A stretch of 64,000 bases of DNA from an uncultured archaeon (GCA_963799775.1 CAWCYD010000003.1:1504001-1568000), one strand, 5' to 3'. Counted from the first letter of the stretch, positions 12,404-36,521 are shown. The notes: a model not told the origin generated them from the sequence alone. Numbers and translations: made by a program.

Positions 12404-12409
12404 TCGAGT

Positions 12410-14195: not shown

Positions 14196-14283
14196 CCTGT
14201 TTTCACGCCCCTACTGTAAGTTCCTCAGTGAGTGTCCGCCTTCGGGCAAGCTAAATAAACGTTAGCGTTCCCGAATGGGGTAG

Positions 14284-15469
14284 CAGTATCTCCGAATGAC
14301 ATAGGGTCACCTCCGTCAGGTTGCCAATGGGATTAGGAATGTGAGGAGGAGGGAGACCTTGACCTCCAATGCGATGATATGCTCTTCATCGTCGCGTCCG
14401 TCCTCTCCATTGTCGTTGCGCTCTGAAGAGTTCAGGATGCACCATGCGTTGTATAGGCATACTGCCACCGCGTAGTAGAGTAGCCTAACCGTGAAGCTCT
14501 TCGATTTCGTCCTCGGAAGGAAGATGTTGTGCTCTCTGTAGGCGGTCTCCACTCCCCAACGGGTCTTGTAACGCTTCAGCAGGCGCTTCGGCCTGCACGA
14601 CATGTTCGTGGCGAAGAGGTAGCTGATCTTCGTCTCCTCGTCGTCGACCCTGACGAGCTTGAACGGTCTGTCGCAAGGATAGGAGACAGATTGACCGTCC
14701 TTGAGGTCGATCCTCTTCGTCAGCCGGTTGGGCGTGAAATGGATTGCATACAGGTATCCGTTCTCCTGGAGCCAAGAGGGGAGCTCGAGCGATGAGAACC
14801 CTCCATCGAAGAGGAGATACCTAACCCTGATTCCCATGTTCCTTATCCGGTTGAGGGCGTCCTCGATGTAATCCAAGAGATACTCCCTGCTCTTGATGGG
14901 CGTCAGGACGATCGTGAGCCTCCTCCCATCGGCGAGGATGCTCGCGGTGAGGTACTGGTAAGCGTAGCAAGAGCCGGCCTTTGGCCTCGTCCCGTTGACC
15001 ATGTCGGTCTCATTATCGCCATAAAACATCTGGTCGTGCCAATCAAACGCAATCGGGACCGGTCTCTTCAGCAACCCCTTTCTCTTCAGCTCGCCTACCT
15101 GCTCCTCGAGGACGATGGAGACGACGCTCTGGAGCTCGTATCTCTCGATGCTCTTGAAGCGCATAAGCGCGGTGTCGGAGTTCGGTACCCCGGCTCCAAA
15201 CTTATTGGAGACGTTGCTCATTCCTTCCGCGTAGGCATTGAGTACAGACGAGTTGACAAGGAGACGGATATAGTCCGCCTTCGTGTACAAGTAGCTGGGC
15301 TTCACCTCGAAGCACAGTAGCTGGGGCAGGCATCGCATCATGACGGTATCGAAGCCTCTGGCTAGATGATTGGAGATCATAGCTGAGGCTTCGGGGTGAA
15401 GACTCCCTACGCCCCAAAATCATAACTTGTTGAGCGACGGCTAAAATCCGCACTCATTCGGAGATACTG
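14284..15469 (-). mobile_element. ISH3-like insertion sequence, copy 1 (1186 bp)
   Basis: Perfect 16-bp terminal inverted repeats CAGTATCTCCGAATGA; DDE transposase; second copy at 35248-36433. Confidence 0.92.
14316..15380 (-). CDS. DDE transposase (ISH3/IS4-like)
   Basis: IAFDWH, LFDGGF, YKTRWGVETAYR. Confidence 0.93.
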   Translation of the reverse strand: MISNHLARGFDTVMMRCLPQLLCFEVKPSYLYTKADYIRLLVNSSVLNAYAEGMSNVSNKFGAGVPNSDTALMRFKSIERYELQSVVSIVLEEQVGELKRKGLLKRPVPIAFDWHDQMFYGDNETDMVNGTRPKAGSCYAYQYLTASILADGRRLTIVLTPIKSREYLLDYIEDALNRIRNMGIRVRYLLFDGGFSSLELPSWLQENGYLYAIHFTPNRLTKRIDLKDGQSVSYPCDRPFKLVRVDDEETKISYLFATNMSCRPKRLLKRYKTRWGVETAYREHNIFLPRTKSKSFTVRLLYYAVAVCLYNAWCILNSSERNDNGEDGRDDEEHIIALEVKVSLLLTFLIPLAT

Positions 15470-16048
15470 TTGATAGATCGTCAAACCTTGATTCATATAC
15501 TTTAGTCTGATTTCCTGCTTCTCTGTCTCTGACAACGCTGCCAAAGTGGAGGGGCCTATTCTTTTGTATCCTTTCTTGTACACTCGCCGACCGACAATAT
15601 AGGTAAAGGGAAGCTTGGCTGTTCGAAGCTTTCCGACGCGGACTCCTTCCCTAACCTCTCGATTTAGAAATTCAATAACTTGATCGCCTGTTACTTTCCC
15701 ATCGAAATATGCCAACATGATTTCCAACTCTTTCCGCTTCTTGAACAGACATCGAGTGTCCAAGACTCCTCGTGCAAACCTGATGAGCGACTCTATTGCG
15801 GCAACTTGGAACTTCACCGCCCCCATTCCGGTCGGCCTTAGCGTGCCTACTCGGAGCCCTTGGGCCTCCAAGAATACCTTGATTTGCAGGAGTTGAGGAG
15901 GCCAATTATCTGTGAACGTCACAGCCCAATGCAACGTAAACTTCCTGACCACTACGTCAAGGCTTCCATCGCCATCGAAGAAGGCCGCCACGGCGCACCA
16001 ATTGTCATAGTGGGCCGGGGTGGTTTTCTCTTCGGGGATCAGTGGCAC
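15470..16048 (-). pseudogene. LAGLIDADG endonuclease-like gene, 5' part (193 codons), interrupted by the IS
   Basis: AVAAFFDGDG motif, FTDN..LLQIKVFL, LFKKRKELEI; reading frame runs into the IS end. Confidence 0.8.
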
Positions 16049-16175
16049 AACCTGAACAGGATTTCACCGCCGAAGAATCACGGAAGCCTACTTAACCGCC
16101 ACATTACGTCTCTGACGTGTGCCATTTCGAAGCTATCGACAGGCATTTTAAGCCGATGTTGATTCCGAGACTCTT

Positions 16176-16490
16176 GGTGGCAGGGAAGGTAGGAAGGCTA
16201 GCCGTCTTCTCGCGCTCAAACCGGCTATAGGAGTGCCAGTAACCGTCGGGTAAAGCCATCCCCTCTCTTTCCTGCGCGCCTGGGCGAGATGATCCCACGC
16301 CGGAGCAGGCGGTCGCGAGGTGCGGGCCCCTCGAAGGAGGGGTTCTGACTCTTGATCGTCGAACCGAGTGAGATCCGGGAGGGGGCAACTCTAAGGCGAC
16401 ACGGCCACGTTGCGCCGTCTACGTGAAGGATCGCTCAGGTCGCGCGATTGGGGGAGGGCGGGGTGGTGAACTCCGGCGGGTCTGCCACCA
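16176..16490 (+). ncRNA. ffs: Archaeal SRP (7S) RNA
   Basis: Helix 1 GGTGGCAG/CTGCCACC, long helix 5, helix 6 CCCCTC-GAAG-GAGGGG, helix 8 TCC-GGGA-GGG; TTTTAA box at 16146-16151; ~315 nt. Confidence 0.85.
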
Positions 16491-16598
16491 TTTACTGGCG
16501 AACCAGGTGTTTCTCTCGCCCCATAGGCGGCTTCGTCCTAATTGCCCCTGGTGAGCCACTCGCCCACGATCGGTCGGACCATCTCCGAATCTACAAGT

Positions 16599-16967
16599 CT
16601 ACGGGTTGAAGGAGCGTAAGAACTTGACAAGTTCCACGAAGTTGGGGTTGTTGTCTGCTTTCACGAGTCTGACAACATGGTCCCTGTTATTGAAAGTCAC
16701 CTTCTTCTCAGCCTGATAGCTCGTCTCTGAGAAAGTCACCATCGCGTAATGAATCCTGCCTTTCAGACTCTCCCCTATTGTCTCCGGAGTCGGAATAAAT
16801 TCGCCCGTCACAAAGGCAATCCCGTCAACCCAATTGATTCCAGGGGCACCTGTTGCCTTTTGCGCTTCAGCCTGGGCGACCATGGATGTCAACAGCTCGG
16901 AGATTTCGACCTTTCTCACCTCGTGAACGATTATCTTGGAGTAGGGCAGATATTCTATCTCGACCAA
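16599..16967 (-). CDS. Conserved hypothetical protein
   Basis: 122-aa ORF with IEYLPYSKIIVHE..WVDGIAF..IHY pattern and upstream TTAATA. Confidence 0.7.
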   Translation of the reverse strand: MVEIEYLPYSKIIVHEVRKVEISELLTSMVAQAEAQKATGAPGINWVDGIAFVTGEFIPTPETIGESLKGRIHYAMVTFSETSYQAEKKVTFNNRDHVVRLVKADNNPNFVELVKFLRSFNP

Positions 16968-17154
16968 GGACGGCTAGCGATTTGTGCTTGCTTTCGCTTT
17001 CCGTATTAAGGTTGGGCCAAGGCCGGCCTCCGCGACATTCCGCCAGAATTCGGCGCGGAACTCCGCCCTGACGATGGCTTTCGATGGAAGCAGGGGCCAC
17101 TTTTCATAACAAATTTGCAGAGTTCCAAGTCAGTGGAAGGGTCTGGCTCTCAGA

Positions 17155-18252
17155 GTGCTTACCGACTTAAAGGGTCTGTCGTGGGTAATGGCCATGCTCC
17201 AGCTTGCGCTTACGTTGGTCATGGCCGCTGCGGTGGGTGACGCTGTCTCGACAGCTTTCACGACTTTCCTGACGGGGATATTCGCTTTCATCCCCAATCT
17301 CATCGGGGCCTTGATAACGCTCGTCGTCGGCTATGTGATAATCCGCGTGGTCGTGAAGGGGCTCAAAGTCGGCTTCCAGAAGGTCGACATCGACAGGCCG
17401 ATTGAAAAGACCGATGTGGGCAAGTTCTTGGAGCGCTCCGGGCGCACCTTCAGCAGCCTAATCGTCGGCGCCGTAAGGGCCGTCCTCTGGATAATCGTCG
17501 CCGTGTATACGATCAGCGTCTTGAGCATCCCTGCTCTCACCGCGTCGATGGAGGGAATACTCGCCTGGATCCCCAACCTCGTCGGGGCGGCCATCATAGT
17601 CGTCGCGGGTGCCCTGATCGCGTCGTTCGCTGGCAAGGCGATAGGCGACACTCTCTGGCAGTATGGGGTCTCGGGGGCGAGGATCCTCGGGACGGCCGTC
17701 AAGCTCCTGATCTACGCCCTGGTCTTCGACTTTGCGATGATCCAGCTCGGGTTCGGGCAGGGAATCATCTACACGGCCACCGCGGCGCTCTCCTGGGGCC
17801 TTGCAGCAGCGCTAGCGATCGGACTCGGCGTCCCCATCGCCTATTCGCTGAAGGGAGTGATGACCTCGATGGCTTCTGGGGCCACAACGATCGCGAGCAC
17901 CCTGAAGGAGGGGCAGCAGGTGACGATCGACGGGATTGAGAACGGCGGTGACCGAGGGAGGGTCTCGGGGACGATAAGGTCCGTGGGCATGTTCAACACT
18001 GTGATAGAGAACGGGAGCAACGGAGGCGCCCCGAGCTTCCTCATCCTCCCGAACAGCCTGCTCATGGACAAGCCCATCCTCGTGAGCGGGACGGAGTGCC
18101 CACAGCTCTGGGACCACAAGATGCGCGGCAGCATGGCCGACCTCGACAACAAGTTCGACGAGCATCACGGGTCAGGGGCACCGCCGAGCGACGAGTACGC
18201 GCCTGCGCCGCCTCCCAGGAACCCGGAAAAGGTCGTAGTCCAAGCCGGATGA
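17155..18252 (+). CDS. TM-helix-repeat / MscS-like membrane protein
   Basis: Repeated FIPNLIGA and WIPNLVGA helices; GTIRSVGMFNTVIE..LPNSLL MscS beta-domain pattern. Confidence 0.8.
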   Translation: MLTDLKGLSWVMAMLQLALTLVMAAAVGDAVSTAFTTFLTGIFAFIPNLIGALITLVVGYVIIRVVVKGLKVGFQKVDIDRPIEKTDVGKFLERSGRTFSSLIVGAVRAVLWIIVAVYTISVLSIPALTASMEGILAWIPNLVGAAIIVVAGALIASFAGKAIGDTLWQYGVSGARILGTAVKLLIYALVFDFAMIQLGFGQGIIYTATAALSWGLAAALAIGLGVPIAYSLKGVMTSMASGATTIASTLKEGQQVTIDGIENGGDRGRVSGTIRSVGMFNTVIENGSNGGAPSFLILPNSLLMDKPILVSGTECPQLWDHKMRGSMADLDNKFDEHHGSGAPPSDEYAPAPPPRNPEKVVVQAG

Positions 18253-18309
18253 GTCGCGAACTTGGCCACCAAGGCTAATTAGCAACGGCGGGCTCTTTGC
18301 CCTCTCGCG

Positions 18310-18453
18310 ATGAGGGCCGACCAGGGAGAGAGATTCGGCTGGAAGGACTACGTCGCGCTCTTCATCGCGCTTCTCCAGACGGTGGCGCTGCCCATGCTCG
18401 TCCTCATCGTGATTATCATTGTGGTCCTCGTGGGCCTGAGCCTAGTGCACTGA
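18310..18453 (+). CDS. 47-aa hydrophobic microprotein (not in ORF track)
   Basis: [47 protein letters not shown]; GC-rich third positions. Confidence 0.6.
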   Translation: MRADQGERFGWKDYVALFIALLQTVALPMLVLIVIIIVVLVGLSLVH

Positions 18454-19468
18454 CTCGACCGTGAGATCTCGTTGCGTCTTCTTTGAGAAGTCGATGTCGT
18501 AGAGGCACTCCGCGAACTGGCCGGGGGCGAGCTCGACCGCAGGAGGGAAGATCTCCGCGCACCTACCCGTCGCATACTTGCACCTGGTCCTGAACCGGCA
18601 CCCCGACGGGATGTTGATCGGGCTCGGGACGTCCCCCTCGAGGACGTCCAGCTGCTTCCTCTTCGCCGGGTCCGGGAGGGGCACGGATGAGAGCAGGGCC
18701 TCTGTGTAGGGGTGCCTCGGGTTCTCGAACAGGCCCTCCGTCGGCCCCACCTCCACCAGGCGGCCCAGATACATCACTCCCGTCCTGGTGCACATCTGCC
18801 TCACCACCGCGAGGTTGTGCGAGATGAAAAGATAGGTCAGGCCCAGCTCCCTCTGCAGCCCTCGGAGGAGGTTGAGAATCTGGGCCTGCACAGACACGTC
18901 CAGCGACGACGTGGGCTCGTCGAGGACCACGAACTCGGGGTTGACCGCGAGCGCCCTCGCGACGGCAATCCTCTGCCTCTGCCCCCCTGAGAACTCGTGC
19001 GGGAACCTGTCGAGGTGGTCGGGGTTCAGGCCCACGAGCCGGACGAGCTCGGCCGCGCGCTTCCTCGCCTCCTCCTTCCCCGAGACGATGTTGTGGATCT
19101 GCATGGGCTCCATGAGCGCCGACCTCACGTTCTGCCTCGGGTCCAACGAGGCGTAGGGATCCTGGAAGACCATCTGGATCTTCCTGCGGATGGGCTTGAG
19201 ACTCCCTCCCCTGAGCCTCGAGATGTCCTTCCCCTCGAAGACTATCCTCCCCTTGGTCGGCTCGACCAGCCTGACCACCGTCCTCGCGAGCGTGGTCTTC
19301 CCGCACCCGGACTCCCCCACGATGCCCAGCGTCTCCCCCCTCCTCACCGACAGAGTCACGCCGTCCACGGCCTTCACATAGCCCTGGCTCCTTCCGAGTA
19401 TGCCTCCCTTGATGGGGAACCACTTGAAGACGTCCTCCATCTTCAGGAGGTCGGAGTCCTGCATCCCG

Positions 19469-19479
<11 letters not shown>
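18442..19479 (-). CDS. oppF: Oligopeptide ABC ATPase
   Basis: [30 protein letters not shown]. Confidence 0.92.
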
Positions 19480-20583
<1,104 letters not shown>

Positions 20584-20587
<4 letters not shown>

Positions 20588-21504
20588 CTTCTCAGCCTCG
20601 GGTCGAGAATGTCCCTGAGCCCGTCGCCGAGGAGGTTGAAGCCCAGAGAGATGAGGAGTATCGTGAGCCCGGGGAAGATGATGAGCCACGGGGCCGTGAA
20701 GAAGTACTGGCTGCCGAGGCTCGCGAGGTTGCCCAGCTCTGGGAGGAGCGGGCTGGGGCTCAGGCCTATGAAGGTCAGCGCAGAGATTGTGAGTATCACG
20801 CTCCCTATGTCGAGGGTCGCCTGGACGAGGAGAGGGTAGATGGAGTTGGGGACGATGTGCCTGAAGAGGATCCGGAACCTCCCCGCCCCTATGGACTTTA
20901 GGCTCTCAACGTAGGGCTTCTCCTTCTCGCTCAGGACCTGGGACCGGACCAGCCTCACGTAAGTGGGCCACCACACGGCGATCACGGCCCCCGTGAGGAC
21001 AGGGATGGTCCTCCCGAACACCACGAGGAAGACTATCGCAAGGAGGATCCCGGGGACCGCGAGGAATATGTCCGTGACGCGGAGTATCGCCTCGTCGACT
21101 ATGCCTCCCGCGTAGGATGCCGTCGCGCCCAGGGTTATCCCGATGACGACCGCCGAGATGACGACCTCCAGGGCGATCTGCAGGTCTATCGGGATGGCGA
21201 GGATTATCATCGAGAGGAGGTTCCTCCCGTAAGAGTCGGTCCCCAGGGGGAGAGGCGAGGGGCACGTGGCGATGTTCACGTTCCCCCAGCCGAAGAGCGG
21301 GTTGTTCCAGCAGTTCTTCAGGATGGGCTGCGTTATCTGCCAGCTCGTCGGGTCCACGAGGAGGTGGGAGAGGAGAGCGATGCCGATGCTCCCCACGGAC
21401 AGGACGAGCCCCGCGAGGACGAGCTTGTTCTGCTTGAAGTGGCGCAGTGCGTACTTGATGTCCGACGCCTGTCCTTTCTCGACGGTGGGCTCGATCTCTG
21501 TCAC
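20584..21504 (-). CDS. oppC: Oligopeptide ABC permease
   Basis: LGTDSYGR, YVESLKSIGA, RDILDPRLR. Confidence 0.92.
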
Positions 21505-21514
21505 TCTCTCGACC

Positions 21515-22635
21515 TCAGTAGCGGATGCGCGGGTCCAGCTTCGCGTAGATGATGTCGACCGCGAGGTTGGTGACGACTATGATGAGCGCGGTGACGAGGA
21601 CGTAGAGCTCGATGAAGTTGATGTCGAAGGCGTTGACCGCTTGGAGGGCGGTGTAGCCGACCCCGGGGAGGTCGAAGACTATCTCGATGACGACCACGCC
21701 CCCGAATAGGAACGCCGTGAGGAGGCCCGCGACCGTCACGGCGGGGAGGAGGGCGTTCCTCAGCGCGTGCCTGTAGACCACCACACGGTCCTTCAGGCCC
21801 TTGGACCTAGCCATGAGGATGTAGTCCTGCTTGATGGACCTCGAGCATGCTCGACCTGACTATTCGAGTCAGCGCCCCGATGGAAGTGATGGAGAGGGTG
21901 ATCGCGGGCAGGATCATAGCGACTATCGAGTCCCAGGAGTAGGCGAGGTTGCCTGAGAACAGGCCGTCGAGGATGGGCGCCCCCGTGACAGCCTTGGCCG
22001 TGCCCGGATTGGTGAAGCAGATGACGCAGTTCGTTGCGAGGGCACCGCTCCCCGGCAGGAGGCCCAGGCCCCCGACCCTTGCGTAGAGGACGAAGATGAT
22101 CAGGAGGACATAGCCGAACCAGAACTGGGGTATTGAGTAGCCCCCGAGCGAGACTATGCGCGAGAGGTGGTCCGGGAGCTTGTTGTTGTGGGTCGCGGAG
22201 AGTATCCCAAGCGGGATGCCAATGAGGATTGTGAGGATCGCACCCATTATCGCGAGCTCCGCGGTGTAGGGGAACCTGCTGAAGAAGACCGAGAGGGTCG
22301 TCTGGGGCCCGGCGATCCCAGGGAGCAGCGTCAGCCCCCAGTTCCCCTTCAACACGTTCGCGAGCCAGGCCGTGTATTGGCCCCAGACGGGCACCAGGCA
22401 GCTCTTGTCGAAGGCGGAGAACGCCTGATACGAGGGGCAGGAACCTCGTCGCGACTCCGAGCGACTGCGCCAGGGTGAGCTTCTGCACGTCGCTCATCCT
22501 AGGGGAGAGGTACGGGGCTAGCGCGAAGCTGGGAGGGAGGAACCCTCTCGTCAGGTAGAACATGAGCAGGCTCAGTCCAAGAAGGACGAAGCCCATCAGG
22601 ATTATCCTCCTGATGGCGTACTCATACAGCTTCAA
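21515..22635 (-). CDS. oppB: Oligopeptide ABC permease (two frameshifts)
   Basis: RFPYTAEL, ARSKGL..HALRNALLP, YAKLDPRIRY. Confidence 0.9.
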
Positions 22636-22647
22636 GCTGTCTGGTTT

Positions 22648-22686
22648 GGCCCCCTCTCCCCGATATTAGGGATTCGAAGGGGGCCG
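22648..22686 (-). promoter_or_regulatory. Intercistronic stem-loop between oppA and oppB
   Basis: GGCCCCT...AGGGGCC inverted repeat directly after oppA. Confidence 0.45.
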
Positions 22687-22696
22687 AAGAAGGGCC

Positions 22697-24865
22697 CTAG
22701 TATAGCGTCGCGAAGTACTCGGGCCCCACGCCGTTGGCCGCCGCGCTGCCCAGTGCCGGGTTCCAGTAGAGCCCCTTTACGTTCGACGTCATCGTCACGA
22801 AGTTGACGTTGTCGTAAGTCCAGAGGTACATGACCTCCTTGTTCGAGAGCACGTTCATCTGATTGCTGTCAGAGACGAGCGCCTTTAGGTTACCAGACGC
22901 GCTCGCGTTGAGGCTCGCGTGGTAGAGGTTCGTGATGGCGGCGTAGTTCATCGCGTCACCGCCTGGGTACGTACCCGGATACGCCAGCATGTTGCCTGTG
23001 AAGTCGAGCACCCACGGGTAGTCGTCGATCCACCCGAAGGAGTACATGTAGAGGTGGTTGGGGACGGAGAACGCCTCTGTGAGCTCTTGCCCGGCTGGAA
23101 TAGGATCCACTGACACCGTCAGACCCATGTTGTAGGTCGTGCTGATGTTGTTGATGGTCCCTGCGATGTCGTTGAAGATCGCCTCGTCGCTCGTGTCGCC
23201 CGTCGCGTAGGTCAGCTGGATGGTCTGCGGGGTCGGGTTGGAGCACGTTCCGGTGCTCCCGAGGCTGGAGCAGCCGAAGGCGTTGTTGAACAAGCTCGAC
23301 GGGGCAGCCGTCCCGTTCGTGAAGTGGAACGAGGTTATCGGGTGCTCCATGGCCTGCAGCAGGAGCTGCGCGGACGTGTCGGGGCTGTAGCTGTAGGCCG
23401 GGGTTATGCTAGAGTTGTACGAGCCGGCAGGGGGGAGCCCAGGAGGAATCACGTTAGGCGCCACCTGTCCAAGCTTGTCAGCGTTGCTGACCCACTCTGA
23501 GGTCATGTTGACGGCGTCCGCGAAAGCCAGACGGAATCTTTGGTCAGCGAAGGGCTGGAACGAGTAGTAGTTGCCAGTCAGCGCGCTCGTCACGTTCGTG
23601 GAGTACGGGTCGAAGGTCACGCCGAGGAACGGGTAGGGCCCGTAGACAGAGACCCCGTTCAGAGTCGACTGGAGCGTCCCATTGGCCAGCCAGGTGGCCT
23701 TGTTGGCCACGTCGTAGAGGTTGGTGCTCTCGACGTCGATCGCCATCGCGGATCCGGCGGACTTCGCCGCGTTCTGGATGTCGATCTCCCTCGTCGTCTG
23801 GTCGGCCACGAACTTGAAGACGATGGTCTTGATCTGCGGGCTGATCTTAGCGCCTGCAGGCGTCATGAACTGGTAAGGCCCGCCCCAATAGTTGGGGTTC
23901 GCCGCCAGAGTTATCGTGCTCGTCGCCGTGTCGTCGCTAGTTATCGTGTAAGGCCCAGTCCCAGCCATCGAGCCCTGCGGGGCCGTGCTGAGGTAGGTCG
24001 CCCCACATCCCGCAGGCGTCGCGGAGCCTGTGGCGTTGCAGGTCGCCGAGAGGTCGTCGAAGTACTGGGTTGCCTTTTGTGTGAAGTTGCCGCTCAAAGT
24101 GGCATAGGGCAGCTTGTAGCCCGCGCTCGAGGCAGTCCAGAGCGCCAGGTCGTGAGTCATCGTGTATCCAGGAGCCACCGGGTCGACGATGGGGTTGGCG
24201 AACAGGTATGGGAACGCAATGTTCGGGTTCATCACGTTGACGTTGAAGGTGAGCGTGCCGGTTGTCTGGATGAAGTTGGCCTTTAGCCACTCAGCCACAT
24301 AGGAGTTCCCATAGGTCTGACCAGGGTTGAAGAACGAGCTCAGCGACTGGTTCGAGAGCTGCTGGATGAGCCAGCCCGACTGGGTGCCGTGACCCACCGG
24401 GGAGCTCCCGTCGTTGATGAGCGCCCTCGTGATGGCGAACCAGACCGCCGTGGAGTTCAGGGCCTCGCCGTCCGCGAACTTGATGCCGCTGCGCAGCGTG
24501 AACTGGTATTGCGTCCCGGCCGCGTTGCCCGTGTAGCTCTGCGCGAGCCAGGGGATCACGTTCGTAGCGTTGGCCTGGTTATACCAGAGGATCGGCTCAT
24601 ACACGTTCTGCATTATGTTGTAGTCGTAAGAGTAATACGAGATCGCAGGGTCGATATATTGGATCGTCTCGGCCGACTCGTAGGTGAGGGTAGTCGGGAC
24701 GGCTCCAGTGCCCGTCCCTGTCCCCGATGACGAGGATGAAGTGGATGAGCTCGAGGAGCTCTTGGAGGAGTAATATGCCACTCCAGCCACCACCACGATC
24801 AGCAGGATGACAACCACCGCGACCGCGGCTATTGTCCTAGAAAGAGCAGCCCGTTTGCGGTCCAT
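22697..24865 (-). CDS. oppA: Family 5 peptide-binding protein with class III signal peptide and Ser/Thr linker
   Basis: IDPA..NVYEPI, FTLRSGIKFADG, GTGPY, NPNYWG, PFADQRFRLA. Confidence 0.9.
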   Translation of the reverse strand: MDRKRAALSRTIAAVAVVVILLIVVVAGVAYYSSKSSSSSSTSSSSSGTGTGTGAVPTTLTYESAETIQYIDPAISYYSYDYNIMQNVYEPILWYNQANATNVIPWLAQSYTGNAAGTQYQFTLRSGIKFADGEALNSTAVWFAITRALINDGSSPVGHGTQSGWLIQQLSNQSLSSFFNPGQTYGNSYVAEWLKANFIQTTGTLTFNVNVMNPNIAFPYLFANPIVDPVAPGYTMTHDLALWTASSAGYKLPYATLSGNFTQKATQYFDDLSATCNATGSATPAGCGATYLSTAPQGSMAGTGPYTITSDDTATSTITLAANPNYWGGPYQFMTPAGAKISPQIKTIVFKFVADQTTREIDIQNAAKSAGSAMAIDVESTNLYDVANKATWLANGTLQSTLNGVSVYGPYPFLGVTFDPYSTNVTSALTGNYYSFQPFADQRFRLAFADAVNMTSEWVSNADKLGQVAPNVIPPGLPPAGSYNSSITPAYSYSPDTSAQLLLQAMEHPITSFHFTNGTAAPSSLFNNAFGCSSLGSTGTCSNPTPQTIQLTYATGDTSDEAIFNDIAGTINNISTTYNMGLTVSVDPIPAGQELTEAFSVPNHLYMYSFGWIDDYPWVLDFTGNMLAYPGTYPGGDAMNYAAITNLYHASLNASASGNLKALVSDSNQMNVLSNKEVMYLWTYDNVNFVTMTSNVKGLYWNPALGSAAANGVGPEYFATLY

Positions 24866-25027
24866 TATCATCAGAACCAGAACGCTCCAAGCGCAGAAAC
24901 GGCCTTGTCGAATATAAAAATCTTCCAAACTCTGTGCTGCGGCGACATGTGAAAGAGGGCCGGTTGGGCTAATTCAGCGAGAAGTCATTATTCTCTATAT
25001 ATCGCTGAAAAGACGGGCCGCGCTGGA

Positions 25028-25147: not shown

Positions 25148-25148
25148 T

Positions 25149-26030: not shown

Positions 26031-26035
26031 CCTGC

Positions 26036-26348: not shown

Positions 26349-26356
26349 CGGCGCTG

Positions 26357-26767: not shown

Positions 26768-26783
26768 AACGCCTAGTAATATT

Positions 26784-26805
26784 TCAATATATATTTAACT
26801 ATTGA
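26784..26805. promoter_or_regulatory. Probable ArsR operator overlapping the TATA box
   Basis: TCAATA-N10-TATTGA inverted repeat in an AT-rich patch upstream of the VOC-ArsR-SRPBCC genes. Confidence 0.55.
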
Positions 26806-26808
26806 TGT

Positions 26809-27567: not shown

Positions 27568-28289
27568 GGTCTGACTCCCACGAGCGCCCTGGCTTCCTTG
27601 AGCTTGACCCCTCCATCGTAGAGGGCCCGCCCTATGATCGCGCCTGCCGCACCTCGCTTCTCGATCTCCTTGAGGTCCTGGGCGTTCCTGATTCCTCCAG
27701 AAGCCAATATCCTCAGACTTCGGAGGGCGCAGAGCGACTCCAACGTCCCAATGTCTGGGCCTGTAGCCATCCCGTCCTGTCCCACCGACGTCGCGAGCAG
27801 GTTCACTACGCCCGCCGCCTCTAACATCGTGGCCGCCTCGAGCACCGTGATGTTCTGGCTCTGGGTCCAACCTCTCGTCACGACCTTGCCTCCCGAGTAA
27901 TCCGAGGCCACGACTATCTTCTCCGGGCCGTATTTCACGAGGAGCTTAGCGAGCGTGTCTGGGCCCTTGTAGGCCAGCGTCCCAAGGATCACCCTCTCTG
28001 CGCCGCTCTTCAGCCAGAAATCCACGTCCGCGGCCGACCTGACGCCTCCCCCGACCTCCACCGGGATCTTTGCTCCCCGGATGATTGCCAGGATGGTCTC
28101 GCGGTTGGAGCCCTTGCCGAACGCCGCGTCCAAGTCCACGATGTGCAGCCCGTCGGCGCCTTCGCGCTCCCATCGCGCCGCGACCTCCAGAGGCTCCTGC
28201 TTCCAGGTCGTCTTCATCTCTTCTTTTCCCTGCTTCAGCGTGACGGCCGACCCCCCGAGGAGGTCGATTGCAGCCCACAGTTGCAGCAA
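27564..28289 (-). CDS. hisA: ProFAR isomerase
   Basis: AIDL..G, LHIVDLDAA, VGGGVR, ASGGI, IIGRALY. Confidence 0.95.
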   Translation of the reverse strand: MLQLWAAIDLLGGSAVTLKQGKEEMKTTWKQEPLEVAARWEREGADGLHIVDLDAAFGKGSNRETILAIIRGAKIPVEVGGGVRSAADVDFWLKSGAERVILGTLAYKGPDTLAKLLVKYGPEKIVVASDYSGGKVVTRGWTQSQNITVLEAATMLEAAGVVNLLATSVGQDGMATGPDIGTLESLCALRSLRILASGGIRNAQDLKEIEKRGAAGAIIGRALYDGGVKLKEARALVGVRP

Positions 28290-28293
28290 GGTG

Positions 28294-28890
28294 CTACCTC
28301 TTCACCGAGCTCAGGAAGTTCTGGAGGATGCGCCTACCAGTGTCGCCCGACTTTTCCGGGTGGAACTGGGTTCCGTAGACGTTCTTGTCTTGGGCGAGCG
28401 CCGGGAACTCCACCCCGTACATGGTGGTCGCGACGACGAAATCCCCCTTGGTCGCAGGGTAGTAGGAGTTGACGTAGTAGACCCAGGCCTCCTCGGGAAG
28501 CCCGTCTGTCAGGTCGGTCTCCCTCTTCACCTTGAGCGTGTTCCAGCCTATCTGGGGAGCCTTCACCTCTGCAGAGCGGAACTTCCTCACGTCCCCGGGG
28601 AAGAGAGACAGCCCTCGTCCCGGGCCTTCCTCGCTCTTGGAGAAGAATAGCTGGAGGCCTAAGCAGACGCCGAGCATCGGCTTGCCGGAGCGGACGACGT
28701 CCCGTATCTTTTGCATTGGGAGCATGCCCGCGGCTTGGTTGAAGCTCCCGACACCCGGAAGGACCAGGGCGTCCGCTTGCTCCATGCCATTGCCGTCCTT
28801 GGTGAGCGACGTCTTCGCACCTTCTTTTCTGAGCGCCGCCTGGATGCTGAAGAGGTTCCCAGCACCATAGTTGAAGACCTGGATGCGCAT
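28294..28890 (-). CDS. hisH: IGP synthase glutaminase subunit
   Basis: LPGVG, GVCLGLQ, QFHPEKSG. Confidence 0.95.
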   Translation of the reverse strand: MRIQVFNYGAGNLFSIQAALRKEGAKTSLTKDGNGMEQADALVLPGVGSFNQAAGMLPMQKIRDVVRSGKPMLGVCLGLQLFFSKSEEGPGRGLSLFPGDVRKFRSAEVKAPQIGWNTLKVKRETDLTDGLPEEAWVYYVNSYYPATKGDFVVATTMYGVEFPALAQDKNVYGTQFHPEKSGDTGRRILQNFLSSVKR

Positions 28891-28900
28891 CGCGGGCTCC

Positions 28901-29489
28901 TCACATCGACCCTTTCGAGGAGGGTGGGGCCTTGATCTTGGCGCGGCGCGGGTCTTGCGAGGCCGCCTCCCGAAGGGCCAGCGCGAAGGCCTTCACAGCC
29001 GCCTCGAACTTGTGGTGGTCGTTGCTGCCGTCCAGCACCTTGACGTGGACGGTCGCCTCCAGAGATTGAGCGATCGAGGTGAAGAAGTGCTCGAGGTCCA
29101 TCCCTCGGCGCGTCCTCCAGCATCACCCTCTGCAGCTTGAGATTCACCGCGGAGTACGGGCGCTTCACCAGGTCCACCGCAGCAAGCGCTAGGCCGTCGT
29201 CCATGGGGACGATCGCGTCGCCGAACCTGCGGATTCCTACCCTCTCGCCCAGGGCTTTTGAGATTGCCTTGCCCAACGAGATGGCCACGTCCTCCACGAT
29301 GTGGTGGGTGAGGTCTCCCTTGGCCCTCACCGTCACGTCCATGAGGCTGTGCGTCGCGAACGAGTCGAGCATGTGGTCGAGGAAGCCTATCCCCGTCCTG
29401 GAGTCAGGCCTGCCTGTCCCGTCTATCTCTACGATGACAGTGATGTCTGTCTCCTTCGTCTTCCTCTTGATTTCGCCGTGTCTGGTCAT
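28901..29489 (-). CDS. hisB: Imidazoleglycerol-phosphate dehydratase (frameshift)
   Basis: RKTKETDI, FLDHML, HHIVEDV, NDHHKFEA. Confidence 0.94.
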
Positions 29490-30625
29490 CGTCCGCTCAC
29501 CTCGCCTTTCGGCGCAAGCAATAACCCTGACGGGACCTGGTTGACCGTCTCGACTATGACGTCTGAGCCCTCCCGCTCGAAGAACGCGGCCTGGTCGGAC
29601 TTGACGGGCGAGGTCTGGTAGACTCCCGCGAACAGGAACCCCTCGAGTCCTTGCTCTCTAGCGTTCTTGACCGTCAGGAGGTTCATCCGCTGAGTCCCCG
29701 ACGTAGAGGATGGTGTCCGAGGAGAGCTTCTCCTTCGCCCTGATGAGCGCATCGGGGTTTGGCTTCCTGAATTTGTCGTACTCGGGCCTGAGCGAGGGGT
29801 TGATGTCCGCGTCGCCGATGAACATCGACGCCTTCTTGTCGAAGAAGCTCATTATCCTCCTCCCGAGGGAGTAGTCAGTCCCCAGGAACGGTCTCCCGGT
29901 CAAGACTGCGAGCCGGCCCTCTCCGAGCTTCCTTGTGAGCGTCTCGAGCGTCTTGACTGTGACCAGGGCGCGCTCCAGCTCGATCAGGCCCCGGAAGCGA
30001 GGGTTGCTCGGCGGGACTCCGTGCATCTTGCGGAACAGGGAGTCTCCGAAGTAGAGCTCGTCGAAGATGGTCGTCATCCTCCCGTTGGGAGGCGTCTCGG
30101 GGTATCCGAGATACCTACGCGTTCGGCCGAGAGTCTTCTCGGACGACGGGAACTTCTCGTCGAGGAAGGAGTCCACTGCTTCCTGTCCTCTTCCCCTCGG
30201 GGCCGACCCGAACTCAGCGACAATGCTCGTCAGGGCCTCGATGGCTCCGGTCGCGTCCTTCTTCCCTTCGAGCGCGATGGTCGCGAACAAGGTGAGCGCG
30301 TAGCTCGTGTCCCAGTCGCTGTTGAAACCCCCCGTCCTCCTGATCGTTGAGATGAGCTTGGGGGCGGACCTCGTCAAAGCGAGCTTCACGCCCGTTATCT
30401 CCTCGACCATGGTCTCCACTACGACCCTTATCGTCACGTCGTAGGCAGCCTTCGAGCGTCTATCAGGACCCCATCGCAGTCGAAGACGACGGCGTCGACT
30501 CTTGCAAGGAGTTCCCTTGACGTGCTCCTGACCGAGAACTTCTTTCCTCCGGGCCCTTGCAGGCGCACGTAGCGTCGCGCGTCGAGGCGCCTCTGGAGAG
30601 CGCTCTTGCTACTCCGTCGCATCAT
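29486..30625 (-). CDS. HAD-family hydrolase, candidate histidinol-phosphate phosphatase (two frameshifts)
   Basis: FDCDGVLID, GGFNSDWD, KPNP, YVGDS; between hisD and hisB. Confidence 0.75.
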
Positions 30626-31935
30626 GACTTTCGAAACCTCGACTGCGCCGACAGGTAGTGGTTGGGCAGGCCCTCTGCGAGAGCGAGCTCCTTGAGCGAA
30701 GGCAGCAGCGTCTTCAGGCCCTGCCTCGTCCCCTCGACGACCCAGCCCACCTTCACAAAGTCGAGCACGCTCAGGCCCGAGCGCAGCTTCGCCACTCCCT
30801 CGGTGGGGAGCACGTGGTCGGTCCCGATGACGTAGTCGCTCGCGGCCCCCGGCGCGTTCTCGCCGAGGAGGATGAGGCCTGCGTTCGAGATTGATTCTGC
30901 GGCCGTCCTGGGCGCATCCACCATCAACTCCAGGTGCTCGGGGGCGAGCTGGTTGACGAGCTCGATCGCAACTTCACGGTCCTTGCACACCGCCGCGAAG
31001 CCCTGCCTCAGGCATCCCATCACGAAATCCTTCCGCTGCAGTTTGGGTGAGACTTGCTCGACGACCTTCTTGACGGCTTTCGCGACCCGCTCGTCCCAGG
31101 TGACGAGGCCGCAGATGCTGTCCACGCCGTGCTCGGCCTGCCCCATCAGGTCCCACGCCATCAAGCGGGGGTCCGCATTTGCGTCCCCGACGACCACCAT
31201 CTCTGTAGGCCCTGCCAAGAAATCGATCGGGACGTCGGTGGAGACGAGCTTCTTCGCCGCAGAGACATAGAGGCCCCCGGGGCCTACGATCTTGGAGACC
31301 TTCGGGATGCTCTCCGTCCCGTATGCCATGGCGGCGATGGATTGAGCACCGCCAACTCGGTAGACCGCGTCCACGCCACAGAGCTTTGCAGCCGCCAGGA
31401 TTGCGTCGCTGACCGGCGCGCCTTTCTCCTTGGACGGAGGTGTGCAGATGACGACCCTCTTCACCCCTGCGAGCTTTGCCAGGCCTGCCGTCATGAGGAC
31501 CGTGCTCGCGTAGGAAGCCCTCCCTCCTGGGATGTAGCACCCCACCGAGTCCAGCGGGCGCACGGCGCACCTGATCACGTACCCGTCGGCGACATAGGAG
31601 AAGGGGAGCCTCGTGAGGAGCTGACCCTGCGTCCTCCTGATCCGCTGGAGCGCGAAGCGCATGGCGTCCAATAGCTTCGGACTCGCCCTGCCATAGGCCG
31701 CGGCGATCTCTTCTTTGGAGACGGCAAGCTCGTCGCTTGTGAGAGTGACACCGTCGAGCTTCCTCGAGTAGCGGAGGAGCGCGGCGTCTCCATCGTCCCA
31801 GACTGCCCGCACTATCTTCTCCGCACCTTTCAATGCCGAGTCGAGGCCAGCCGGTCTCGCCCTGATTCTTTCAGCGACCTTCTTGGCTTGTTTTTTGCTT
31901 TCGACTCGAACCAGGGGCAGTAGCTCGCTACTCAT
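30622..31935 (-). CDS. hisD: Histidinol dehydrogenase
   Basis: GCYIPGG, GGAQSIAA, QAEHG, APEHL, HVLPT. Confidence 0.96.
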   Translation of the reverse strand: MSSELLPLVRVESKKQAKKVAERIRARPAGLDSALKGAEKIVRAVWDDGDAALLRYSRKLDGVTLTSDELAVSKEEIAAAYGRASPKLLDAMRFALQRIRRTQGQLLTRLPFSYVADGYVIRCAVRPLDSVGCYIPGGRASYASTVLMTAGLAKLAGVKRVVICTPPSKEKGAPVSDAILAAAKLCGVDAVYRVGGAQSIAAMAYGTESIPKVSKIVGPGGLYVSAAKKLVSTDVPIDFLAGPTEMVVVGDANADPRLMAWDLMGQAEHGVDSICGLVTWDERVAKAVKKVVEQVSPKLQRKDFVMGCLRQGFAAVCKDREVAIELVNQLAPEHLELMVDAPRTAAESISNAGLILLGENAPGAASDYVIGTDHVLPTEGVAKLRSGLSVLDFVKVGWVVEGTRQGLKTLLPSLKELALAEGLPNHYLSAQSRFRKS

Positions 31936-32912
31936 TCCCGTCCCCGAACTCCTCGAGGGATAGGATGTTCTGCGGCTCGTGTATCACAAGGCCCTGGGCG
32001 AGCCTCTTCAGAGTTGGGAGCATTGCGTGCAGGTTCATTCTTGCTTATCACCGTGTTGACGTCATACCACCCCTTCTCCGACAGCGGGCTGACCGTGGGG
32101 CGCTTGAGGGCTGGAAGCTCCCTGAGTAGCTTGTCGAGGTTCTTCTCCCTGACGTTCACGAAGATGTGGAGCCGCTTCTGACCCTCGACGACCCCGCTCA
32201 GCATTATCTTGAGGTCCTTGATCTTCTCCCTCTTCCAGGGTCACTTCATCGCCTTCTTGTTCGCGACGAGCCACGCGGTCGAGCGCATCAGCGTGCCCAG
32301 CTGCTTGAGGTTGTTCTGCTCCAGCGTCGTCCCGGTCTCGGTGACGTCGACTATCATGTCGACGATCTCAGGGGGCTTCGCCTCCGTTGCGCCGAAAGAG
32401 AGATAGACCGCGGCCTTTGGGTTCGCGCCCTTCCTCCACCACGGGGTGATTATCATCGGCTCCTTCTTCCCGAACCGCCTCTTGTACGAGGGCTGCGAGG
32501 CCAGGTAGTCGGCCGTGATGTTGAGGTATTCCGCTGAGACCCGGAAGTCCTTCCCCTGCTTCCAGAAGCTCTCCATCAACTCGTCGACGCTCTCGTAGGG
32601 CTGCGACTTTGGCGTGGCCGCGACTAGTTTGACGCCGCCGAACTCCAGGTCGAGGACCTTCTCGACGCTAGCACCGGTCTCCGTTATCCAGTCGATTCCT
32701 GTGATGCCGACGTCTTGGATGCCGTCTGCCACGTAGAGGGGTATCTCCTGGGGCCTCAGGACGCGGAGCTCGACCTCGGGGTCGCCGAAGGCAGGGCGGT
32801 AGCTCCTGTCTTGACCTGAGATCTTATAATACGCCTTCTGGAAAATCTCTATGCTCTTCTGGCCGAGGTGGCCGTTGGGGATCGTGAGCTTCAGCTTCTT
32901 GTCTGTGGGCAT
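31932..32912 (-). CDS. hisG: ATP phosphoribosyltransferase, long form (two frameshifts)
   Basis: LRPQEIP, GITGIDW, FGATEAKPP, ETGTTL, LPALKRPTVSPL. Confidence 0.94.
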
Positions 32913-33093
32913 TCTAGGACGTCCCTCCGGTTCTCCGAATAGAGGTAGAAATTCTTGAGCCCGTCGAGGATTCGTTTGGGAAGCTTATTCGTGGGCCGAG
33001 AAGGCTAACGATGAACTAGACCAGCTCCGACGACCGTGAACTTCATCGCCTTCCATTATGCTCCACTGAAAATTTCGCCGCGCTGAATCATAT

Positions 33094-34288
33094 TTAAGGG
33101 TTTGTTGGTGTTGACCGGTTTCTTCGCGCTAAACTGGACAGGCCAGAGATAGGCACCCTGAAAGGCATCAGCCCTGTCAGCTTCAATCTTCGACGAATCA
33201 CGTCAAAGAAGATGATTGCGAGGATACCCTGTCGTGCAACCGCTATCCATTGGTCGGGGCTTGTGATCGCCGCCGGATTGCTGGCATTGAACATCGGTGT
33301 CGCAATCCAGAGGATGAGCATGATGTCCAGGATGTTGACGACGAGAGACATCCGATAGCTCCTTCCCGCGAGGGCGAACAGAGGCAAGGCGAGGATCATG
33401 TACTGGGGCGGGAACTTGTAGCTCACGACGAGGAAACCGACGAGCGCCAGGAAGCACAACTCGCCAAGCTCGAACCTATCCCTCAGCCTCAGCAACAGAA
33501 GCAAGACGCCCACCAAGAGTATGCCCGAGACCACCTTCGCAAGACCATCGTTAGGGATGATGTTGAGCCAGCTGTCTTCGCTGAAGTAACCCGCCTGGAA
33601 AGTGTAAGGATAGACGAATCCCTGAAAATCCCTGAGCATGAAGTAGGCGTTCGTTAGGAGCCAGCTTCCTACGACCGCACCCACGAAACCGAGTCTGCTT
33701 GTCCGGCCTTTGAAACTGAGCAGGATGAAGGGCAGACAGACAGCGGGGATTATTCGCACCGCGATGGCCAGGCCCATCGACACACCTGAAAGAGCAGCTC
33801 TCTGGCGATATGCGAGGTAGATGGAGAGCATCATCAATCCTGCTCCAGCCCAGTCGAAGCTGTAGATCGAGTAGAAGATGAAGACGGGGGTGAAGATGAT
33901 GAAGTGCTCCAGGCTGCTGGTGGAGGAGAGACCACGGAGCAACAACAGCTTCCTCGTCGCGAAGACTGCGACCAGCATGAAGGCGAACAAGAAGATGCTC
34001 ATCATCCAGTAGAACGTGTAGACGTTCTGAGGGGGGACCAACGATGCCGCCCAGAGCAACCAGGCAGAGAGCGCGGGGTACTCCAGCATGTAGTCCGACA
34101 TACGGGATGACCCCCTGTCCATGGATCGCTCCCGCCGTGGCAATCCGCGGGAAGATGGCGCCCGCGAGATCCGTGCCCAGGCTCGGGCTCATCCCGGGAT
34201 AGTGGAGCCAGAAGGCGAGCAAGAAAAAGGCGGAGGCGACCACTACGATGTGGAAGATAGAATCCCTAGATTGTCCGTCGTTTTGCAA
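33094..34288 (-). CDS. GT87-like membrane glycosyltransferase (frameshift)
   Basis: PY.DYMLEYP, SFD, PPQY motifs, many TM helices. Confidence 0.7.
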
Positions 34289-34300
34289 TTTGCAGCACTC

Positions 34301-34735
34301 TCAAGCTTGTTGCATCAGCGTGGTCAGCGGCACGGAGATCCCGCCTTCAAGATGGGATATGTGAACGAGCGCCCCATCCTTCCACTTGACCATGTGACGA
34401 GTGCTCTTCGGAGCAAATTTCGGACCTTGGACGGCAGCCTTGATGACGTTCTCCTTCGGGATCTGCAGCTTGCGGTCCTTCGAGAACACAAGGATGTCTT
34501 CATCGGAGTAATCGACCAGCCAGGCGGAGACGCGGGAGGCCCCTAGCGCCTGGAGCGCGCTCAACCTATGCACTCCGTCGAGCACCACCATCGTCCTCTC
34601 GTCAACCAGGATCGCCTTCTTCACGACACCCGTGGACTGGATTTGCTTCACGACGCGGCGCACCCTGTCCGGCTCCGCGGCCTCGTGCGTCTTCACCTCC
34701 TTAATTGGGACGAGCGCGAAGCGGACCTTCACCAA
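34301..34735 (-). CDS. Stand-alone ParB/Srx N-terminal-domain protein (SerK/SbnI-like)
   Basis: THE, ILVD..VLDGVHR, PKSTRH. Confidence 0.78.
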   Translation of the reverse strand: MVKVRFALVPIKEVKTHEAAEPDRVRRVVKQIQSTGVVKKAILVDERTMVVLDGVHRLSALQALGASRVSAWLVDYSDEDILVFSKDRKLQIPKENVIKAAVQGPKFAPKSTRHMVKWKDGALVHISHLEGGISVPLTTLMQQA

Positions 34736-34823
34736 GGCGAGGGACCGCTCTGGCGGAAGCTGCTCATAAGCCCGGTAGACGTCTGTCCAAGACTTATTAC
34801 CGCTTTGTCGGCAAGCGGACTTC

Positions 34824-34933
34824 GGGCCGGTCGTTCAGCCTGGTTAGGACGTCAGAGCATGTCCGTCAAGCTCTTACACGGCGAAAACGCAAGAGCGTCG
34901 TCACGGCCGAGAGTTCGAATCTCTCCCGGCCCA
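34824..34933 (+). tRNA. tRNA-Val(TAC) with two introns, 28/29 (34854-34869) and 44/45 (34886-34904)
   Basis: Removing both introns gives GGGCCGG/CCGGCCC acceptor, TCGCT-CTTACAC-GGCGA anticodon arm, GAGAG-TTCGAAT-CTCTC; both introns form BHB motifs. Confidence 0.88.
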
Positions 34934-35026
34934 TCCCTCCCCCTAGCCACGCGGGATAGATTTGACCTCTGAATTTCCTCTCCCAAGGGTTAATAGGGGA
35001 AGGCGTATTCTACTGAGAGACACAAA

Positions 35027-35239
35027 GTGACCCGGAGCACCTATCTGTGGAAGTCGGACGACGGCCTGAATCGTGTCGCCAACGTGCGCTACAAGCACGG
35101 CGCCGAGCTTTCGAAGATACCCGGCGTCACCGGGATTGGCATAGGGAAGGACCACATCATCGCGTATGTCTCCAACGAGGCAGCGAAGGTGCCCGAGACC
35201 ATTGAGGGCGTGGCCGTAATCAAGATATTCAAGGCGTAG
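35027..35239 (+). CDS. 70-aa hypothetical protein
   Basis: KHGAELSKIPGVTGIGIG..VPETIEGVAV; TTAATA upstream. Confidence 0.6.
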   Translation: MTRSTYLWKSDDGLNRVANVRYKHGAELSKIPGVTGIGIGKDHIIAYVSNEAAKVPETIEGVAVIKIFKA

Positions 35240-35247
35240 GGCTCTAC

Positions 35248-36433
35248 CAGTATCTCCGAATGAGTGCGGATTTTAGCCGTCGCTCAACAAGTTATGATTT
35301 TGGGGCGTAGGGAGTCTTCACCCCGAAGCCTCAGCTATGATCTCCAATCATCTAGCCAGAGGCTTCGATACCGTCATGATGCGATGCCTGCCCCAGCTAC
35401 TGTGCTTCGAGGTGAAGCCCAGCTACTTGTACACGAAGGCGGACTATATCCGTCTCCTTGTCAACTCGTCTGTACTCAATGCCTACGCGGAAGGAATGAG
35501 CAACGTCTCCAATAAGTTTGGAGCCGGGGTACCGAACTCCGACACCGCGCTTATGCGCTTCAAGAGCATCGAGAGATACGAGCTCCAGAGCGTCGTCTCC
35601 ATCGTCCTCGAGGAGCAGGTAGGCGAGCTGAAGAGAAAGGGGTTGCTGAAGAGACCGGTCCCGATTGCGTTTGATTGGCACGACCAGATGTTTTATGGCG
35701 ATAATGAGACCGACATGGTCAACGGGACGAGGCCAAAGGCCGGCTCTTGCTACGCTTACCAGTACCTCACCGCGAGCATCCTCGCCGATGGGAGGAGGCT
35801 CACGATCGTCCTGACGCCCATCAAGAGCAGGGAGTATCTCTTGGATTACATCGAGGACGCCCTCAACCGGATAAGGAACATGGGAATCAGGGTTAGGTAT
35901 CTCCTCTTCGATGGAGGGTTCTCATCGCTCGAGCTCCCCTCTTGGCTCCAGGAGAACGGATACCTGTATGCAATCCATTTCACGCCCAACCGGCTGACGA
36001 AGAGGATCGACCTCAAGGACGGTCAATCTGTCTCCTATCCTTGCGACAGACCGTTCAAGCTCGTCAGGGTCGACGACGAGGAGACGAAGATCAGCTACCT
36101 CTTCGCCACGAACATGTCGTGCAGGCCGAAGCGCCTGCTGAAGCGTTACAAGACCCGTTGGGGAGTGGAGACCGCCTACAGAGAGCACAACATCTTCCTT
36201 CCGAGGACGAAATCGAAGAGCTTCACGGTTAGGCTACTCTACTACGCGGTGGCAGTATGCCTATACAACGCATGGTGCATCCTGAACTCTTCAGAGCGCA
36301 ACGACAATGGAGAGGACGGACGCGACGATGAAGAGCATATCATCGCATTGGAGGTCAAGGTCTCCCTCCTCCTCACATTCCTAATCCCATTGGCAACCTG
36401 ACGGAGGTGACCCTATGTCATTCGGAGATACTG
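35248..36433 (+). mobile_element. ISH3-like insertion sequence, copy 2 (1186 bp)
   Basis: Same 16-bp TIRs, same length and identical transposase translation as copy 1, opposite orientation. Confidence 0.92.
35337..36401 (+). CDS. DDE transposase (ISH3/IS4-like)
   Basis: Identical to the 14316-15380 protein. Confidence 0.93.
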   Translation: MISNHLARGFDTVMMRCLPQLLCFEVKPSYLYTKADYIRLLVNSSVLNAYAEGMSNVSNKFGAGVPNSDTALMRFKSIERYELQSVVSIVLEEQVGELKRKGLLKRPVPIAFDWHDQMFYGDNETDMVNGTRPKAGSCYAYQYLTASILADGRRLTIVLTPIKSREYLLDYIEDALNRIRNMGIRVRYLLFDGGFSSLELPSWLQENGYLYAIHFTPNRLTKRIDLKDGQSVSYPCDRPFKLVRVDDEETKISYLFATNMSCRPKRLLKRYKTRWGVETAYREHNIFLPRTKSKSFTVRLLYYAVAVCLYNAWCILNSSERNDNGEDGRDDEEHIIALEVKVSLLLTFLIPLAT

Positions 36434-36521
36434 TCAACTCGCACCGCTTTTCGAGGTATCCCCATCAACGATATTCAAAACAGTGCGGGGCTTGAAACGA
36501 GGCAAAAGAGTCGGATGGTAA
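36434..36521 (+). pseudogene. Displaced 3' end (HTH) of the LAGLIDADG gene at 15470-16048
   Basis: (Q)LAPLFEVSPSTIFKTVRGLKRGKRVGW* joins in frame to ..GLTIYQ through the TCAA duplication. Confidence 0.85.

Follow-up and report, generated by a model that had tools for sequence, protein, structure and literature searches.

We identified, in a 64,000-nt stretch of DNA from an uncultured archaeon (GCA_963799775.1 CAWCYD010000003.1:1504001-1568000; hereafter, the window), two identical copies of an ISH3-like insertion sequence (IS) that lie in opposite orientation and bracket 19,778 bp of chromosome. Our results support the view that this segment (15470-35247) was turned over from its ancestral orientation and that the breakpoints coincide with the IS ends, because independent lines agree on it: target-site duplications (TSDs) that are exchanged between the two copies, a LAGLIDADG-helix-turn-helix (LAGLIDADG-HTH) gene that is split here and contiguous in its homologues, and gene order in 15 of 15 related loci. 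A preliminary description of the window had already proposed the flip, and the same three lines bear it out; as for the IS pair itself, the observation is confirmed in every detail. Homologous recombination between the two inverted insertions is the most likely cause, which we hold to be probable rather than assured. The copies, their transposase open reading frames (ORFs) and the duplications beside them are as follows.

14280..14283, unstranded: GTAG (reverse complement CTAC), half of the CTAC duplication, beside copy 1
14284..15469, minus strand: IS copy 1, ISH3-like, 1186 bp, with 16-bp terminal inverted repeats
14316..15380, minus strand: transposase ORF of copy 1, 354 amino acids (aa); Pfam DDE_Tnp_1, E 1.5e-7; tblastn 100% identity to P0003
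15470..15473, unstranded: TTGA (reverse complement TCAA), half of the TCAA duplication, beside copy 1
35244..35247, unstranded: CTAC, the other half of the CTAC duplication, beside copy 2
35248..36433, plus strand: IS copy 2, 1186 bp, the exact reverse complement of copy 1
35337..36401, plus strand: transposase ORF of copy 2, 354 aa (P0003); motif Y271-KT-R-WGV-E-TAY-R; NCBIfam ISH3
36434..36437, unstranded: TCAA, the other half of the TCAA duplication, beside copy 2

The two arms (14284-15469 and 35248-36433) are each 1186 nt long and 100% reverse-complementary, their exact identity having been confirmed by script. Spaced 19,778 nt apart, they form the sole long repeat within the window, where no further IS copies were found beyond these two. 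Each copy starts and ends with a perfect 16-nt terminal inverted repeat, CAGTATCTCCGAATGA, which has exactly four occurrences in the window, one per IS end, with up to three mismatches allowed (0.45 expected).

Neither copy has a direct repeat of its own. On the plus strand, the flanks read GTAG[IS<]TTGA at copy 1 and CTAC[IS>]TCAA at copy 2; in element orientation, copy 1 becomes TCAA[IS]CTAC and copy 2 becomes CTAC[IS]TCAA, the two 4-mers being exchanged, just as had been described. Comparison of 5-nt flanks gives mismatches at both sites, and hence we take the duplication to be 4 bp long, a length also borne out by the homologues, against which the split gene is restored in frame. A double 4+4 swap arose by chance in 52 of 2,000,000 random pairs of window positions, a frequency of 2.6e-5.

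The second line of evidence comes from the LAGLIDADG-HTH gene, the two parts of which adjoin different IS copies.

15470..16048, minus strand: N-terminal 193 codons of the interrupted LAGLIDADG-HTH gene, ending ..GLTIYQ beside copy 1
36435..36521, plus strand: C-terminal 28 codons and stop of the same gene, QLAPLFEV.. after copy 2

The C-terminal part (36435-36521, plus strand) translates as QLAPLFEVSPSTIFKTVRGLKRGKRVGW, followed by a stop. The Q codon at the break falls within the duplicated TCAA and, with TCAA counted once, the rejoined gene neither gains nor loses a residue relative to its homologues. Thirty homologues with E <= 1e-3 were retrieved from among 240 candidates, the best of them (79-84% identity, 220-231 aa) from Nitrososphaerales bins and metagenome contigs, and their alignment is gapless across the break, running from ..YQ into LAP... 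In the intact homologue P0004, residues 12-199 match 16033-15470 (84% identity) and residues 199-221 match 36435-36503 (91% identity). The alignment and these two matches uphold the earlier claim that the ORF stops at ..GLTIYQ and resumes in frame after copy 2. The two halves now lie 20 kb apart on opposite strands, facing away from each other, and should be annotated as one interrupted gene.

The domain assignment of this gene, as a LAGLIDADG protein with a C-terminal HTH that was cut in the HTH, appears to be right on the strength of a structure model. The preliminary description had named both domains, and the fold of P0004 agrees with it, although Pfam gives neither on the window fragment. 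Specifically, Pfam and NCBIfam returned no family for the N-terminal fragment in the window. Among eight proteins scanned, the Pfam family LAGLIDADG_3 was above its cut-off in one (P0017, 24.7 vs 22.5), below it in three and without a match in four, the window fragment among them; HTH_38 appeared in seven of the eight, under its cut-off in all seven. An FDGDG motif is invariant in 21 homologues, and the model of P0004 built on 21 homologues reached a predicted local distance difference test (pLDDT) of 81.9 and a predicted template modeling score (pTM) of 0.62. A fold search was needed because a PDB sequence search with the family profile gave only weak matches over the HTH region and no LAGLIDADG entry. 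In that search (Foldseek against PDB), the top matches to the P0004 model were I-CvuI and I-CreI (E about 1e-6, probability 1.00, TM score on target 0.53-0.61), with I-MsoI matching as well. The alpha-beta-beta-alpha-beta-beta-alpha fold typical of LAGLIDADG proteins is thereby assigned via P0004, which is 84% identical, and not via the broken window gene. The C-terminus of the model consists of three short helices (180-215), and the IS cut, at residue 199, would fall within the second of them.

The third line of evidence is gene order, for which the following features of the window serve as reference.

13821..14195, minus strand: TRAM-domain gene with a Gly/Arg-rich N-terminus; Pfam TRAM, E 2.3e-15; NCBIfam PyTRAM, 80.5 bits vs a cut-off of 85
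15470..35247, unstranded: inverted segment, 19,778 bp, its gene order and orientation reversed relative to the M50/NcsA side in related loci
16178..16487, plus strand: signal recognition particle (SRP) RNA gene, the synteny marker; Archaea_SRP, 85.7 bits, E 3.2e-18, model positions 1-317 of 317
18442..24928, minus strand: opp-type ATP-binding cassette (ABC) transporter genes (ATPases, permeases, binding protein; Pfam), several with frame changes
25028..25144, plus strand: transfer RNA (tRNA) gene, 117 nt, probably with an intron; Rfam tRNA, 41.5 bits
26809..32912, minus strand: histidine biosynthesis cluster hisF/A/H/B, hisD, hisG (Pfam)
34824..34933, plus strand: second tRNA gene, 110 nt; Rfam tRNA, 35.3 bits; blastn match upstream of hisG in loci L009 and L010
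36530..37608, minus strand: NcsA/TtuA-like tRNA thiolation gene, in two frames in the window; neighbor of the SRP RNA gene in all relatives
37578..38915, plus strand: M50 site-2 protease gene (Pfam), the anchor for related loci

The 15 related loci (48-76% identical) were fetched via the M50 protease gene from species-representative genomes that do not include the source genome, all of them Nitrososphaerales/Nitrososphaerota or unclassified archaeal bins (metagenome-assembled genomes). In every one of the 15, blastn places the SRP RNA gene directly upstream of the M50 gene, where it shares a strand with the NcsA-like gene and is separated from it by 22-786 nt; in the window, the SRP RNA gene and the NcsA-like gene are 20 kb apart on opposite strands. 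The comparison with relatives that the preliminary description had put forward as a check came out uniformly, the SRP RNA/NcsA junction being reversed in all 15 loci relative to the window. Beyond that junction, opp (L002, L005, and L006) and/or his (L002, L007-L011, and L014) follow upstream in descending window coordinates and in an orientation opposite to that in the window, which is the pattern expected from one flip of the whole of 15470-35247. Among the 10 loci that reach at least 8 kb upstream, opp separates the his/tRNA region from the SRP RNA gene in only three (L002, L005, and L006).

The same loci bear on the interrupted gene. The LAGLIDADG-HTH gene, a putative endonuclease that is I-CreI-like by the model, stands alone, with the SRP RNA gene on one side and NcsA on the other, and one relative (L003, 2271-2945) has it intact in that place. 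It was not found at the SRP RNA/NcsA locus in the other 14 of the 15, and we regard it as accessory for that reason; its distribution is patchy and it is perhaps itself mobile.

As to the identity of the IS, the best NCBIfam profile for the transposase P0003 is ISH3 (NF033541; E 9.5e-37, positions 3-297 of 298), the next-best family (E 3.5e-6) being weaker by about 30 orders of magnitude. As defined in "IS4 family goes genomic", members of the ISH3 family live in archaeal hosts, measure 1225-1500 bp, have CRGT at their termini, make direct repeats of 4-5 bp and encode a transposase with the motif Y-(2)-R-(3)-E-(3)-(R) (PMC2266710). The element shares with that definition the archaeal host (TFIIB, the archaeal SRP RNA and aRF1 are archaeal markers in the window), ends that read CAGT and so fit CRGT, a 4-bp duplication at both sites (TCAA and CTAC, read across copies), a single ORF and the motif, which has one regular-expression match in P0003, at residue 271 (YKTRWGVETAYR). 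It differs in that, in the same text, 5-bp repeats flanked by A and T are typical (PMC2266710). Of the earlier statement that ISH3 elements end in CAG and make 4-5 bp duplications, the duplication length stands, while the printed ends are CRGT rather than CAG. At 1186 bp, the element is 39 bp under the printed length range, which describes the ISH3 members known in 2008 and is not defining, and the ISH3 profile score on P0003 (126.7 bits) is below the curated cut-off of 225. Hence, by its sequence, the element is best called ISH3-like, the score marking a distant branch, not an equivalog, and the slightly short length likewise favoring that label. Of 1853 candidates in a transposase search, 114 proteins reached E <= 1e-3; many show about 80% identity and lie on contigs of 1.2-2 kb, and the few relatives that bear a name are labeled "transposase" and come from Nitrososphaerota. 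A survey of 20 thaumarchaeal genomes reported ISH3 in only one species (PMC6563490), and the window documents, in that phylum, an ISH3-like element whose relatives at about 80% identity are common in metagenomes.

In the scenario that we infer from these observations, an ISH3-like element would have inserted in the C-terminal HTH of the accessory LAGLIDADG-HTH gene (target TCAA) and, separately and in the opposite orientation, in the spacer upstream of the TRAM-domain gene (target CTAC). Both insertion points are harmless, one being an accessory gene and the other an intergenic spacer, which makes two independent insertions plausible. Homologous recombination between the identical inverted copies would then have flipped 19,778 bp, taking along the SRP RNA gene, opp, a tRNA gene, his and the second tRNA gene. 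This would have left each copy with one half of each 4-bp duplication and the gene halves 20 kb apart on opposite strands. We prefer recombination over transposition because the ISH3 family offers a precedent in Halobacterium and because the studied relatives of the transposase move by cut-and-paste. In that precedent, PacBio reads show both orientations of an ISH3C pair, and its authors infer insertion followed by inversion (PMC7002104); both orientations among the reads are what recombination between two resident copies predicts. That the flip in the window may likewise be able to go back, as had been suggested earlier, is a reasonable inference.

Several points weigh against this reading. 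The orientation of the segment was read from assembled sequence. The related loci end at hisG or the adjoining tRNA gene, short of the second junction (the TRAM-domain gene versus the tRNA/35027-35239), such that synteny covers the SRP RNA/NcsA junction. Apart from matches to paralogous ABC ATPases and TFB, no ORF in 32900-35300 or 9000-14300 finds a true equivalent in the 15 loci, and the tRNA gene at 34824-34933 is the sole item recovered from that side. The IS is absent from the 15 related loci, no genome with both IS copies in un-inverted arrangement was seen, and the GC skew of the three segments (+0.004, -0.011, and -0.014) carries no signal either way. To our knowledge, the transposition chemistry of ISH3 elements has not been established. 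Finally, one-step transposition would need two events, not three, and about 9-10 well-supported frame changes in conserved genes point to an unpolished sequence; these last two points lead to the explanations that compete with recombination.

In the first of these, a one-step intramolecular replicative transposition in trans, a single resident copy, flanked by its own 4-bp duplication, would attack a second site 19.8 kb away, copying and inverting as it does so; we consider it possible but unlikely. Such an event would explain why the copies are identical. However, P0003 falls in the DDE_Tnp_1/IS4-related group, of which the studied members IS10 and IS50 move by cut-and-paste. The predicted outcome, two inverted copies that each keep one half of the original duplication beside one half of the newly made one, is what we see (PMC4471558), and the preliminary description, which had left recombination and replicative intramolecular transposition side by side, was correct in that their footprints are alike. 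The consulted passages of the ISH3 literature (PMC2266710 and PMC7002104) mention no replicative activity for these elements, and the Halobacterium ISH3C pair, as described in the latter, flips both ways, which transposition does not explain. Were one-step transposition true, the window would be a first hint that an ISH3/IS4-related transposase can take that pathway. We consider it rather unlikely that the ISH3-like pair represents either a live reversible inversion, its orientations coexisting in a natural Nitrososphaerales population, or this one-step replicative transposition.

An error of assembly would also account for the arrangement. If cells carried TCAA[IS]TCAA and CTAC[IS]CTAC, the segment would have been joined the wrong way round across the identical repeats, and the direction of a unique segment flanked by identical inverted repeats is a classic ambiguity in assembly. 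We think this quite improbable, since the window lies on a contig of 2,056,127 bases and the pattern of frame changes suggests long reads, for which a 1.2-kb repeat is normally no obstacle; had short reads been assembled, breaks at the two repeats would be likelier than a contig that passes through both. Frame changes, counted where at least three relatives have one continuous ORF, fall into 13 listed clusters, or about 9-10 distinct sites; the genes hit include the NcsA-like gene, aRF1, oppB, and hisB. A run of at least four G or C occurs in 9 of the 13 spans, versus 0.33 of random spans, and the changes are probably homopolymer indel errors of the assembly, not pseudogenes. The spans include 21829-21837, 22435-22461, 25390-25442, 29061-29100, 37260-37280, 39679-39697, 40973-41004, 50990-50999, and 51360-51376, and a small conserved ORF is among the genes affected. 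An assembly rich in indel errors also weakens the argument for a recent event made in the preliminary description: the 100% identity of the copies fits a young inversion, but gene conversion or polishing across the repeats would give the same, such that recency is weakly supported. The IS-bounded segment is a place where the assembly orientation merits checking with reads. Lastly, although two inverted IS copies do bracket a segment, we give virtually no credence to a composite transposon (the two copies plus the DNA between them) inserted here or to a coincidence of flanks, as the outer flanks on the plus strand (GTAG on the left and TCAA on the right) form no direct repeat, the segment holds native housekeeping genes that neighbor NcsA in 15 of 15 relatives, and a coincidence would have to combine the double swap (2.6e-5) with the in-frame split gene.

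Beyond the inversion itself, the earlier inventory of 15470-35247 (SRP RNA, opp, his, and two tRNA genes) was recovered by Pfam and by an Rfam scan at an E-value threshold; at the gathering threshold, Rfam had missed the SRP RNA and one tRNA gene. The SRP RNA score in the window is under the Rfam gathering score of 96.5, and Rfam found the SRP RNA above that score in two of seven related loci scanned. The SRP RNA of the more distant relatives L009 and L014 scores about 110, and that of closer relatives is also under the threshold. Three long tRNA genes (25028-25144, 34824-34933, and 60528-60663; 110-136 nt, presumably with introns) were detected by Rfam and not by ARAGORN, which reported only a tRNA-Leu at 3071-3145 that Rfam did not list at the gathering threshold. 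Within the segment, a mechanosensitive-channel gene (17155-18252, within 16599-18252) has no counterpart at this position in any related locus. The ORF at 34301-34735 matches the first ~97 of 244 positions of the profile for archaeal SerK (ADP-dependent serine kinase) at 52 bits, versus a cut-off of 380; it is perhaps what is left of a truncated gene, or else a distant ParB-like domain.

Outside the segment, the spacer upstream of the TRAM-domain gene is one of the two IS insertion sites, with the end of copy 1 lying 88 nt upstream of the start codon. An A/T-rich, TATA-like stretch persists between the IS end and that codon, and the TRAM-domain protein has an N-terminal extension of roughly 40 residues that is rich in Gly, Arg, and Ser. 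On the other side, a region of about 6.3 kb (41947-48299) sits between a Toprim-domain gene and pheT, which adjoin in most relatives; its ORFs, for example that at 45364-47637 (757 aa), match no Pfam family, and it is likely an accessory island.

The closest known counterparts of the IS-bounded inversion are in Halobacterium salinarum, where inversions between pairs of ISH3C and ISH8B were recognized by "hybrid TSDs" and split genes (PMC7002104). As in the window, the ISH3C pair (strain 91-R6) and the ISH8B pair (plasmid pHS3, strain R1) consist of opposed IS copies with separated duplications, and the ISH8B pair further combines two hybrid duplications with one split gene of which a relative has an intact version (PMC7002104). 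The inverted segments are of a scale similar to the 19.8 kb here, a 23.8-kb case being described (PMC7002104). The two settings differ in that H. salinarum is a halophilic euryarchaeon with both orientations seen in long reads, whereas ours is a member of Nitrososphaerota represented by an assembly, and in that the ISH3C duplication is 5 bp (ATGAT) and ours 4 bp (PMC7002104). A literature search found no IS-bounded inversion in Nitrososphaerota.

A second set of counterparts is provided by IS26 and Tn4401, which can transpose replicatively in trans within one molecule, duplicating themselves and turning over the stretch from donor to target site (PMC4471558). Their footprint is like that in the window: inverted copies bracket an inverted segment, the duplications too stand in inverted configuration, and genes or elements are split where the junctions fall. 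They differ from our element in their transposase families (IS6 and Tn3), in a demonstrated cointegrate pathway, in duplications of 8 or 5 bp, and in residing on bacterial plasmids (PMC4471558). Against this background, the window opens no new question on mechanism. IS-bounded inversions with exchanged duplications and split genes are established, ISH3 elements included, and the window is a further instance of that kind, a textbook-clean case of an IS reshaping the chromosome in the little-studied soil-type Nitrososphaerales, known only from metagenome bins.

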